Sequence record: MT968995.1
Length of the DNA: 64,000 bases
Strand: one strand, 5' to 3'
DNA from: Escherichia phage vB_EcoM_WL-3
The translations under genes were made by a program, and so were the position numbers. How positions within the stretch are numbered: position 1 is the first letter of the stretch; the number at the start of each line of letters is the position of its first letter. Under the pieces are notes generated by a model, which saw only the letters and a program-made list of their open reading frames with translations, made no database searches and was not told the DNA's origin. Of the stretch, positions 38,290-44,656 are shown in pieces.

Positions 38290-38700
38290 TCATTTTTTCT
38301 TGTGTTGAATATTCCAAGGCGGGTTAAACAGTTTAATGAATAGCGGCTCCTCTAGGTCAATCGTTGCGATTGTCATTGTACCTAACTCATTTGTCATAGA
38401 AAGATTAAAACATTGGCGGGCGTAAAATTCAACTTTGCTTCCTTCCTTTAGCGCAGAATGAATTAATGCAGATTTAGTAGAATCAGACGTTTTGTCTTTA
38501 CGGTTAATAGCAGTTCTATAATAATTTATTCTTTTACGTAAATTTTTAGTTTTTCCAATATAAACAAGCTCATCATTTATAGCAATAGCATAAATTACGT
38601 TATACTTGTTTGGAATAGATAATTGTTTTATACTTCCGTTGTCGTCTAATTCTAGCTCAGTATATTTAATAAATGAATATTCTGTTGCAATTTCTTTCAT
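38290..38700 (-). CDS. denA: Endonuclease II (GIY-YIG family)
   Basis: 136 aa from MKEIATEY; GIY-YIG-like motif [17 protein letters not shown]; position between rnlA and nrdB as in T4. Confidence 0.85.
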
Positions 38701-38705
38701 AATAA

Positions 38706-38719
38706 AATGGGCCTTGCGG
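38706..38719 (-). promoter_or_regulatory. Hairpin between the Shine-Dalgarno (AAGGAG) and the denA start codon
   Basis: Minus-strand AAGGAGT-GGGCC-GCAA-GGCCC-ATTTTATT-ATG; the stem-loop would bring the SD close to the AUG. Confidence 0.55.
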
Positions 38720-38727
38720 CCCACTCC

Positions 38728-39906
38728 TTAAAAGTATTTTTTAAAACTCATCATAACTTTATCATCAACATCATTATCAATCTGTGCAACAAGATAAGAT
38801 GACAGTTCTACTTCTTGTGGCGCTGATTGAACATTATCAGAATTAAGATATTCACGAATCCAAGGATATGGATGTTTAACCGGAGCATCGGTAATTGGGC
38901 ATGGAAGACCACACTGTTTCATACGAGATACAGTTAAGTAATCAATAAAGCTCCACATGCTATTTGTATTTAATCCAGGAACATCGCCATCTTTAAATAA
39001 ATGAACTGCCCAATCTTTTTCTTGGCGGTTAACTTCCATGAAAATATCAACTGCTTCTTGTTCACACTCTTGAGCAATTTTAACCCATTGATCGCCATCA
39101 GTACCAGATTGAAGTTGACGAATAATATATTGTGTACCTTTAAGATGAAGCTGCTCATCACGTGCAATAAATTTCATAATCTTCGCATTACCTTCCATGA
39201 TTTCCATGTTCTTATGGAAGTTGAAAGTACATGCAAAGGATACATAAAAACGAATAGCTTCCAGAGCATTGATAACGTGCAGACAGAGATAAAGCGACTT
39301 CATTAGCTCACGCTTCCAATATGTCTCATGCTCAATAGCATCTTCAATAACGTCTTCGTCTGCATTAATTTCTTTTTGGTATTCGATATCAGCTTTAGCG
39401 TTTTCCCAATAACGAGTTTTAATCAGAACATCATCATAATAACGTCCAATGGATTCAGCACGTTTCATAATAGCTTCATCTAATACAATTTCATCAAATA
39501 CCTTCGATGGATCAGTATAAAGATTTCGCATGATATGAGTATATGAACGACTGTGAATAGTTTCACTAAAAGTCCATGTAGCAACCCATGTATCAAGGCT
39601 TGGGTCTGAAATTAATGACATAAGTACAGCAGATGGCGCGCGACCCTGAATGCTATCTAAAAGTGATTGATACTTCAAGTTGTTAGTAAAAATATTTTGC
39701 TGATACTGAGGAAGCTTATTAAACTGTGCAGCATCCATCATCAAGTTTACTTCTTCAGGACGCCAGAAAAATGATAATTGCTTTTCGGTTAAATCTTCAA
39801 AAACTTTATGACGTTGAATATCATAACGCGCAATACCAAGACCTGAACCAAAAAACATAGGTTCTTTTAAAACGTCAACTGGATTTGTATTAAAAACTGT
39901 GCTCAT
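38728..39906 (-). CDS. nrdB: Ribonucleotide reductase small subunit (intron-less)
   Basis: Continuous 392-aa ORF with no interruption. Confidence 0.92.
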   Translation of the reverse strand: MSTVFNTNPVDVLKEPMFFGSGLGIARYDIQRHKVFEDLTEKQLSFFWRPEEVNLMMDAAQFNKLPQYQQNIFTNNLKYQSLLDSIQGRAPSAVLMSLISDPSLDTWVATWTFSETIHSRSYTHIMRNLYTDPSKVFDEIVLDEAIMKRAESIGRYYDDVLIKTRYWENAKADIEYQKEINADEDVIEDAIEHETYWKRELMKSLYLCLHVINALEAIRFYVSFACTFNFHKNMEIMEGNAKIMKFIARDEQLHLKGTQYIIRQLQSGTDGDQWVKIAQECEQEAVDIFMEVNRQEKDWAVHLFKDGDVPGLNTNSMWSFIDYLTVSRMKQCGLPCPITDAPVKHPYPWIREYLNSDNVQSAPQEVELSSYLVAQIDNDVDDKVMMSFKKYF

Positions 39907-39957
39907 AAATTTTCCGCTTAGTTAATAGTTGGTGACTCGTCCGTGAGTCAAATTATA

Positions 39958-42222: not shown

Positions 42223-42539
42223 AAGTCCTCAACTTGAAAATCGTCTTTAAACAATCGGTTAACTATATGAGCTATTATATCACCATGACACGGCTTTGGT
42301 TTACATGTGCATCCTAGCCTCATTCCACGTAAAGGCTCTAAATGTGCTTTAGTTATTTCTCCGGATTTAATTCGACGTATAAAATCTTTTTTGAATAATT
42401 CAATGGCAACCTCCCGGCTGCCAGCATCTTTACCGACGTAATTTCCCCAAAATGTACCACGGTGAATATTAACATCAAAGTCGGATTTATATTTATTCAC
42501 TACCTGGCATAGACGGCCCGCGCGGTGATAATTCGTCAT
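42213..42539 (-). CDS. Hypothetical protein (nrdA.1-like)
   Basis: 108-aa ORF overlapping the nrdA start. Confidence 0.6.
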
Positions 42540-42756
42540 ATTGTTTTTCCGTTAAAACAGTAATATCATAGTAACAATCTGAAGAAGTTTTAACTGTAGA
42601 AATTTTATTATCAAAATACTCACGAGTCATTTTATGAGTATAATATTTTTTGCCATAAATGATAATAGGCTGATTTGGTCCTGGAACTTCTAACTCACTT
42701 GGATTAGGAAGTGTAAAAAGAACTGCACCAGAAGTATCTTTAAATCGTAAAATCAT
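42493..42756 (-). CDS. Hypothetical protein (nrdA.2-like)
   Basis: 87-aa ORF. Confidence 0.55.
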
Positions 42757-42779
42757 ATATCCTCACAGTTAATAATTAA

Positions 42780-43091
42780 TTACACCGCCATTTTTCCTTT
42801 AATAGGAGGGTGTGATTCGTAACCTTTAAGAACGAAATCTTTAGGCCTGAGTTTAAGAACATATTCCAATTGTTCTTTAGTAGAAAGATAGCGGAATTTA
42901 TAAGGCAATCCGCCTATTACCAGTTCACAAAGCTCTTTAGGTTCACGACGTAAAATTTCTTTACATTGTTCCACGTGGTTCATATAGATATGAGTATTAC
43001 CGCCAGAAAATATCAAATCTCCAGGAATAAGATTACACATCTTAGCTACAATATGAACCAACGCAGCATATGATGCAATATTAAATGGAAG
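42780..43091 (-). CDS. td: Thymidylate synthase, exon 2
   Basis: Encodes LPFNIASYA...KGKMAV; joined to exon 1 it gives a 286-aa TS; 3-prime splice site after the G at 43092. Confidence 0.92.
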   Translation of the reverse strand, partial: LPFNIASYAALVHIVAKMCNLIPGDLIFSGGNTHIYMNHVEQCKEILRREPKELCELVIGGLPYKFRYLSTKEQLEYVLKLRPKDFVLKGYESHPPIKGKMAV

Positions 43092-44107
43092 CATTATGTT
43101 CAGATAAGGTCGTTAATCTTATCCCGGAATTATATCCAGCTGCATGTCACCATACAGATCAGACTATATCTCCATCTTGATGAAGCAAGATGTCTATCGT
43201 TTCGAGTCACTTGACCCTACTCCCCAAAGGGATAGTCGTTAGGCATTTATGTAGAACCAATTCCATTTATCAGATTTTACACGATAAGTAACTAATCCAG
43301 ACGAAATTTTAAAATGTCTAGCTGCATCTGCTGCGCATTCAAAAATAATCCCGTCGCATGAAATCTTTTTAATATTACTAGGCTTTTTGCCTTTCATCTT
43401 TTCTGATATTTTAGATTTAGTTTTGTCCGAATGCTTATGATTAAAGAATGAATTATTTTCACCTGAACGATTTCTGCATTTACTACAAGTATAAGCAGAA
43501 GTTTGTATACGAACACCGCACTTACAAAATTTGTGTTTTTCTGGATTCCATCGTCCGTTTTTACTTCCGGGTTTACCGTAAAGAGCTTTCCGAGCATCAA
43601 GGCCAAGCTTAAGCATCTTAGCTTTAACAGTTTCAGAGCGTTTCTTAATAATTTCTTCTTTTAATGGATGTACAGAATATGTATCACCAAACGTTGCATC
43701 AGCAATATTATATCCATTAATTTTAGAATTAAGCTCTTTAATCCAAAAATTTTCTCGTTCAATAATCAAATCTTTCTCATATGGAATTTCTTCCAAAATA
43801 GAGCATTCAAATACATTACCGTGTTTGTTAAAAGACCTTTGAAGTTTTATAGAAGAATGGCATCCTTTTTCTAAGTCTTTAAAATGCCTCTTCCATCTCT
43901 TTTCAAAATCTTTAGCACTTCCTACATATACTTTATTGTTTAAAGTATTTTTAATCTGATAAATTCCACTTTTCATAAATACCTCTTTAAATATAGAAGT
44001 ATTTATTAAAGGGTAGTCCTACAATTTAGCACGGGATTGTCTACTAGAGAGGTTCCCCGTTTAGATAGATTACAAGTATAAGTCACCTTATACTCAGGCC
44101 TCAATTA
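43092..44107 (-). mobile_element. Group I self-splicing intron of td (1016 nt) carrying the I-TevI ORF
   Basis: Intron 5-prime sequence TAATTGAGGCCTGAGTATAAGGTGAC directly after exon 1 (in-frame TAA at the splice site); 3-prime end at ...ATAATG; total 1016 nt. Confidence 0.9.
43239..43976 (-). CDS. Homing endonuclease I-TevI (GIY-YIG)
   Basis: 245-aa ORF inside the td intron; N-terminal GIY-YIG domain (GIYQIKN...KVYVGSA) and C-terminal zinc-finger DNA-binding region. Confidence 0.93.
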   Translation of the reverse strand: MKSGIYQIKNTLNNKVYVGSAKDFEKRWKRHFKDLEKGCHSSIKLQRSFNKHGNVFECSILEEIPYEKDLIIERENFWIKELNSKINGYNIADATFGDTYSVHPLKEEIIKKRSETVKAKMLKLGLDARKALYGKPGSKNGRWNPEKHKFCKCGVRIQTSAYTCSKCRNRSGENNSFFNHKHSDKTKSKISEKMKGKKPSNIKKISCDGIIFECAADAARHFKISSGLVTYRVKSDKWNWFYINA

Positions 44108-44656
44108 ACCCAAGAACACGTCAACACTTCTTTGATACCACTGTAAATCCAAATATCCATTACGCACATTAAACTGATAGAACATATGACAAGGTGGTAA
44201 TGCCATATATTTAAGTTCAGCTGGATTCCACGCAGAAACAATTTGACGCCTATCATTCGGTAGTTTTTTAATACGATCAATAACTTCTACAATTTGGTCT
44301 ACACCGCCAAAATCACGCCATTGTTTTCCGTAAATTGGACCAAGTTCACCACTATGATATCCTAAATCTTTTGCTTGGTTTTCGTAATTTTCATCCCAGA
44401 CTGTTTTGCCTTGAATTAATGAATCGTGTTGAATTAATCGTAAATCATTGACATTTGTGCTTCCTGATAAAAACCAAAGGAGCTCAGCAATGCAAGCTTT
44501 CCAGGCGAGCTTCTTAGTCGTTACTGCAGGAAAACCTTTAGTTAAATCCCAGCGTAATTTAGTACCGAACAAAGCAATTGTTCCTGTGCCTGTTCGGTCA
44601 TCGGTTTCATAGCCATTTTCAAAAATGTCTTTAATTAAATCTTGGTATTGTTTCAT
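44108..44656 (-). CDS. td: Thymidylate synthase, exon 1
   Basis: 183 codons ending ...VDVFLG, with the active-site region LPPCHMFYQF. Confidence 0.92.

Follow-up and report, generated by a model that had tools for sequence, protein, structure and literature searches.

Which of the homing endonuclease genes of phage T4 does Escherichia phage vB_EcoM_WL-3 carry, and what stands at the sites where they are missing? We addressed this question in a 64,000-nt stretch of sequence record MT968995.1 (hereafter, the window), with most attention to positions 38290-44656, which run from the stop codon of denA, a gene left unmentioned in the initial annotation, to the start of td. An initial annotation, made from the letters alone, had described there a td gene split by a group I intron with I-TevI, an intron-less nrdB, and no mobE or, elsewhere in the window, segE. 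Our answer, in which we have high confidence, is that the window comes from a Tequatrovirus (T-even phage) that is ∼95-98% identical to known members and is a mosaic of T2-like and T4-like sequence. As judged by comparison with its relatives, it carries, of the homing endonucleases found over this stretch in T4, only the td intron with a full-length I-TevI; the other five sites are “empty” alleles of the T2 kind.

Megablast searches with positions 36000-46000 and with three large pieces of the window matched Tequatrovirus records in the hundreds, with identities of 95-98% and no identical one among them, and no record in the phage collection exceeded ∼98% over a long stretch of the window. Aligned by blastn to the T4 reference (NC_000866; RefSeq NC_000866.4), the window is collinear with ∼100.5-164 kb of T4 at 89-97% identity. 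There are only a handful of clean insertions and deletions (indels), and the clean gaps relative to T4 coincide exactly with segD, segE, the nrdB intron, nrdB.1 plus mobE, and segG. Because the presence or absence of each element was read against an annotated reference, chance is not an issue here. At sites informative between T2 (PV958097) and T4, the denA-frd region proves to be a patchwork of T2-type and T4-type tracts, and it is on account of this mixing that we describe the backbone as mosaic. None of the evidence we found contradicts the structural description that follows.

Over the same stretch, T4 holds six endonuclease genes: segD (106561..107232), segE (112057..112674, 618 nt, between inh and uvsW), the defective I-TevIII gene within the nrdB intron, mobE, the I-TevI gene within the td intron, and segG (147909..148541). 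The T4 annotation places them at exactly the sites that were compared, which answers the concern that T4 itself might lack them there. Every absence named in the initial annotation is borne out, including that of segE from the 50-bp gap between inh and uvsW, but the list was incomplete: segD and segG are also absent, which leaves the window with one of the six. No endonuclease remnants were seen at the empty sites. With one endonuclease gene of six, this is indeed a close relative of T4 and not T4 itself, as had been proposed.

The occupied site is the one in td. The gene is split, at the coordinates first given, by a 1016-nt intron that carries an intact 245-aa (amino acid) I-TevI frame, and the joined exons encode a thymidylate synthase of 286 aa, 277 of which are identical to T4 Td. 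The intron interrupts the same codon of td as in T4 and matches the T4 intron (1017 nt in NC_000866.4, 1 nt longer than here) at 976 of 1017 aligned positions (96%). Over its first 92 nt, which take in the guide-sequence region, it does not differ from T4. It starts TAATTGAGG and finishes ...ACATAATG, again as in T4. Exon 1 finishes ...TTCTTGGGT (...GGGT), with U preceding the 5′ splice site as in T4; the last base of the intron is G (...AATG), and its excision restores the td reading frame. By this likeness and the shared insertion site, the intron is an orthologue of the T4 td intron (subgroup IA2), whose self-splicing is experimentally proven, and we infer that the present variant self-splices too. 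Helix P8 (43193..43172) pairs as CAUCUUG/CAAGAUG here and as CAACUUG/CAAGUUG in T4, a compensatory change from A-U to U-A, and helix P9 shows a C-G to U-G change; the single double change lends modest support to conservation of the helices.

The I-TevI frame within this intron is identical to that of T4 at 706 of 738 nucleotides. Its product matches three Pfam families along its length: GIY-YIG (PF01541; residues 3-90, 5.2e-18), I-TevI_ZnF (PF22635; residues 149-179, 1.4e-20), and I-TevI_DNA-bd (PF20987; residues 192-242, 5.7e-32). The GIY and YVG motifs are kept, together with Y6, Y17, R27, E75, N90, and the four zinc-finger cysteines, and the protein is probably an active endonuclease.

The exon sequence on either side of the intron deserves a separate description. 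The three informative sites of exon 1 nearest the intron are T4-type, and the first 90 nt of exon 2 carry the T2-type base at all seven informative positions. Synonymous changes are densely clustered in the final 27 nt of exon 1 (44108-44134), relative to T4 (eight of them), T2, and Yersinia phage PST, the peptide being unchanged; the codons altered are Arg CGC>AGA, Ser TCA>AGT, Val GTA>GTT, Asp GAT>GAC, and Val GTT>GTG. This cluster spans the motif at which I-TevI cleaves and the spacer, with CNNNG preserved as CAAAG, and part of it is also found in phage JE01. An exact-string scan of IMG/VR did not find the 27-nt string, and a 201-nt query across the td junction met no GenBank phage record above 96.5% identity.

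At nrdB, the 598 nt missing in the alignment with T4 form a clean gap that is exactly the T4 intron, with ...CCTTTGCAT joined directly to GTACTTTC; the claim of a continuous 392-aa reading frame is thus correct. The 5′ 100 nt of the gene are T2-type at 48 of 52 informative sites. The gap between nrdA and nrdB, put at ∼50 bp in the initial annotation with no room for a mobE-like gene, measures 51 bp, against 701 bp in T4, where it holds nrdB.1 and mobE, and it is the same as the spacer of PST and T2 but for a few substitutions. Further into the gene, nt ∼500-620 (39290-39410) form a hypervariable stretch with several in-frame indels relative to T4, in which some sites match neither T2 nor T4; these indels account for the 392 aa of NrdB here against 388 aa in T4. 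The coordinates of the features discussed are collected in Table 1.

Table 1. Coordinates of the td and nrdB features, empty endonuclease sites, and neighbouring genes in the window
Feature	Position	Strand	Details
td exon 1	44656..44108	-	549 nt; 515/549 identical to T4, 522/549 to T2
td intron, group I	44107..43092	-	1016 nt; I-TevI reading frame in peripheral loop
I-TevI gene, intact	43976..43239	-	738 nt, 245 aa; 236/245 identical to T4 I-TevI
td exon 2	43091..42780	-	312 nt including stop codon; 282/312 identical to T4
nrdB, intron-less, T2-type allele	39906..38728	-	single 1179-nt open reading frame, 392 aa
Empty nrdB intron insertion site	39230..39231	-	junction between GCAT and GTAC; I-TevIII homing site ∼-35..+10 around it
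MobE nick counterpart	39781..39785	-	nrdB nt 122-126; codon 42 = AAG
nrdA-nrdB spacer, empty mobE/nrdB.1 site	39907..39957	-	51 bp; nrdA stops at 39958
Gene 23-gene 24 spacer, empty segD site	6069..6151	.	83 bp
inh-uvsW spacer, empty segE site	10871..10920	.	50 bp; inh 10870..10190, uvsW starts 10921
Gene 32-gene 59 spacer, empty segG site	48259..48357	.	99 bp; T2 spacer same 99 bp
denA (endonuclease II)	38290..38724	-	identical to T4 DenA; Pfam GIY-YIG 4.8e-6; not a homing endonuclease
Open reading frame between td and frd	44702..45061	-	119 aa; no Pfam match; phrog_1928, function unknown

Which T4 enzyme would matter at an nrdB of this kind? Wilson and Edgell (PMC2790892) reported that MobE nicks the nrdB of T2, a phage with neither the nrdB intron nor mobE, at nt 122-126, in codon 42. 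They also reported that codon 42 is AAG in all phages lacking mobE, whose nrdA-nrdB spacer has no terminator, and that MobE nicking drives the inheritance of mobE itself and, in trans, of the nrdB intron, the I-TevIII of T4 being defective. Since the T4 intron would move by way of MobE nicking, it is the MobE site, and not the I-TevIII site, that is relevant. In the window, nrdB agrees with T2 at every base of nt 90-128 and has AAG as codon 42, and the 51-bp spacer contains no terminator-like site; for these reasons we predict that this nrdB is sensitive to MobE.

Some observations temper this picture. A scan of the whole window with Rfam at gathering thresholds gave no match, and a permissive search of 42900-44300 recovered no more than the 3′ half of the intron (43370..43140; Intron_gpI, RF00028), whose 36.3 bits (E = 2.7e-7) fall short of the gathering score of 50. 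We attribute the shortfall to the 738-nt reading frame, which splits the ribozyme core; the family assignment therefore rests on near-identity to the T4 td intron. I-TevI differs from the T4 protein by nine substitutions (C100Y, T102V, P126L, G128A, S134G, T147K, I185K, V210I, and D213E), none at a catalytic residue or zinc ligand. At the empty nrdB site, the I-TevIII target has substitutions relative to T4 at -8, -2, +5, and +8 and at -32 or further upstream. Positions -31..-9 of that target are identical to the intron-deleted T4 substrate, and this interval includes the cuts, which have been mapped at -14/-16 (PMC1865063).

Could the missing insertions simply be artefacts, the intron-less nrdB being a copy of the complementary DNA (cDNA) kind, or the short spacers the work of an assembly that dropped the insertions, while the real phage has the full T4 complement? 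Assembly quality is open to question, since a perfect 77-nt tandem duplication in gene 34, described below, is itself a likely assembly artefact. However, such an explanation would need precise mis-assembly at five separate sites, and the same empty alleles, with nearly identical spacers, are present in the independently sequenced genomes of T2 and PST. A spliced T4-like copy would also differ from the T2-type flanks (48 of 52 sites) found at the empty nrdB and mobE sites. Since the 1179-nt allele is shared with T2 and PST and its flanks are T2-type, we do not regard the intron-less nrdB as a product of splicing or cDNA, and we give practically no credence to an artefact. Loss is another matter: a T4-like ancestor with all six elements may have shed five of them, by deletion or by recombination with empty alleles. 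The T4-type and T2-type tracts tell us that recombination with T-even phages has occurred, and this can swap an occupied allele for an empty one; a cyclical model of gain, degeneration, and loss of homing endonuclease genes is also discussed in PMC2988022. Yet the empty sites follow the T2 and PST alleles almost base for base, free of endonuclease remnants, and empty alleles are the majority state among relatives. We consider such a history unlikely, with the proviso that the present-day structure is the same whether the sites lost their elements or were never invaded, and that sequence alone does not give the direction.

The td intron could, in turn, be a very recent gain, brought from T4 itself into a T2-like genome by I-TevI homing. 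The three T4-type sites at the end of exon 1 and the T2-type start of exon 2 do resemble a short one-sided co-conversion on the side that I-TevI cuts, but with three informative sites the sample is too small for a conversion tract to be defined. The intron, moreover, at 96% identity to that of T4 (706/738 over the I-TevI frame), is no closer than the surrounding backbone; over its full length no record exceeds 96.9%, and eight synonymous differences from T4 lie within those final 27 nt of exon 1. As the intron (96.0%) is only slightly more conserved with T4 than are the two exons (93.8% and 90.4%), recent acquisition from T4 was rejected as very improbable. It is also quite doubtful that the intron is the footprint of a separate homing event that left a very short co-conversion tract on one side only, the td/nrd backbone being otherwise T2-type, in which case the cluster at the end of exon 1 might reflect selection on the endonuclease target and not drift. 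We thus keep to the reading of a mosaic Tequatrovirus with an occupied td site and five T2-kind empty sites.

What might these elements do in a mixed infection? By what is established for such elements, the td intron would splice itself out of the td precursor messenger RNA, allowing thymidylate synthase to be made. I-TevI, expressed late, would act on the intron-less td of co-infecting phages and cut it 23/25 nt upstream of the insertion site, and repair of the double-strand break would bring the intron, together with neighbouring exon sequence, into the genome that was cut. T4, in its turn, when co-infecting, would be expected to target the empty sites described here, with MobE nicking nrdB, SegE cutting uvsW, and SegG cutting gene 32; repair would then convert the targeted sites, an outcome that amounts to localized marker exclusion. 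The susceptibility of this genome to the T4 enzymes is likewise what we infer, and the suggestion in the initial annotation that the phage would serve as a recipient in crosses with T4 is a reasonable one. The arrangement lets one predict the markers that T4 would impose in mixed infection, and crosses for MobE, SegE, and SegG could use the phage as a natural recipient that is itself immune to I-TevI, which is a convenience and not a discovery.

Are there other endonucleases in the window, at sites where T4 has nothing? We examined all segments of the window without an alignment to T4: 33198-33725, 35360-35680, 44702-45061, 45655-46241, the alt paralogue at 21338-23395, and gp38. No endonuclease domain was found in them, using PHROGs for all and Pfam for 35360-35680, 44702-45061, 45655-45897, and 45894-46241. 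The reading frame between td and frd was considered as a candidate insertion and rejected: it occurs in 349 phage records, T2 among them, and corresponds to ORF232 of PST, so that its presence is the common state and T4 is the genome lacking it. The other small frames absent from T4 lie at gene junctions, namely 33198-33725 (cd.2/cd.3), 35360-35680 (after pseT), and 45655-46241 (after frd). They belong to PHROG families of unknown function, one being DUF7247, with no nuclease domain, and those after pseT and after frd have counterparts in PST.

Some features elsewhere in the window should be noted by anyone using this record. The duplication mentioned above in gene 34, which encodes the proximal long tail fibre, lies at 51270-51424 and is a perfect tandem repeat of 77 nt (2.0 copies, 100% match) where T4 has one copy. 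It shifts the frame of gp34, leaving a 270-aa N-terminal reading frame (50624..51436) and a remainder of ∼1074 aa (51349..54573). The string at the duplication junction was not found by an exact-string scan of IMG/VR. As 77 is the usual largest SPAdes k-mer, the duplication is probably an artefact, an overlap of the circular contig left untrimmed when the genome was re-oriented; otherwise, it would be a real frameshift mutant of an essential gene. In uvsW (10921-12700), a 503-aa frame ends ...KTVNL*, and the C-terminal part (GFGPLEKKMLLEFKQ...) lies in another frame. UvsW in the T4 RefSeq record is a single fused protein of 587 aa, and related records also show two “DNA helicase” features; the split may be common or a recurrent homopolymer error. 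Positions 21338-25495 hold two full-length tandem genes for Alt-like ADP-ribosyltransferases (685 and 698 aa), where T4 has alt and only the short duplicate remnants alt.-1 and alt.-2. In the distal tail-fibre region (56419-60200), nothing aligns to T4 beyond the start of gene 37, and gp38 (59388..60200, 270 aa) belongs to the T2-type family of tail-fibre adhesins, not to that of the T4 gp38 assembly chaperone.

How unusual, then, is this combination? We took as a frame the ∼540 records that are at least 90% identical over the region, and each element was counted separately across records. In the phage collection, the td intron is found at ≥80% coverage in 196 records and segE in 159. The T4 nrdB intron is found at ≥80% coverage in 118 records, some of these matches being from unrelated hosts, and the nrdB.1 plus mobE region has any match in 143 records and most of its length in 20. 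Each T4 element thus occurs in only ∼20-45% of the related records, from which it follows that absence is the majority state for each and that presence of the td intron is a large minority state. In at least nine distinct phages, the match to 36000-46000 is a single uninterrupted collinear piece, and these phages therefore have the same arrangement, with the td intron present and the nrdB intron and mobE absent.

Such a pattern is familiar from the literature. Edgell and colleagues (PMC2988022), who tabulated the insertion and target sites, describe T4 as an oddity, an outlier with 15 homing endonucleases where most relatives have few. Its reference list includes Pedersen-Lane and Belfort (1987) and Quirk et al. 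(1989), whose titles speak of a variable occurrence of the nrdB intron and of introns inconsistently distributed among the T-even phages. The marker exclusion seen between T2 and T4 has been attributed to homing endonucleases (PMC2988022, PMC2790892). Both the variable endonuclease content of T-even phages and its role in marker exclusion are textbook material. Because it is common and well documented, the pattern described here is not remarkable. What it does provide is a correct split-gene annotation for td and a confirmation that this is a Tequatrovirus like T2 and PST, with little significance beyond annotation.

The nearest counterparts of the window can be set out as follows. T4 is collinear with it and has a td intron at the same site, 96% identical and with a full-length I-TevI; it differs in having segD, segE, the nrdB intron with a truncated I-TevIII, nrdB.1 with mobE, and segG, and in lacking the td-frd reading frame, those at 33198-33725, 35360-35680, and 45655-46241, and a full-length second alt. 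T2 has the same intron-less 1179-nt nrdB, a 51-bp nrdA-nrdB spacer, no mobE or segG, the td-frd frame, and the kind of gp38 adhesin found in the window, but its td, 861 nt long, is uninterrupted and has neither the intron nor I-TevI. Phage PST (NC_027404, Tequatrovirus pst) has an identical gene order from pseT to frd.3, a continuous 1179-nt nrdB, a 51-nt nrdA-nrdB spacer, no mobE, a td intron with I-TevI, a reading frame between td and frd, and two extra ones after frd. Over the 10-kb region it aligns to the window as one collinear piece at 95.7%, and is thus ∼4% divergent, differing in the 5′ region of nrdB, which is T4/PST-type in PST and T2-type in the window, and at several synonymous sites at the end of td exon 1. 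Patterns of this sort have been described since the 1980s and are found in many sequenced relatives, and vB_EcoM_WL-3 adds one more genome with one of the known combinations, with nothing different in kind.

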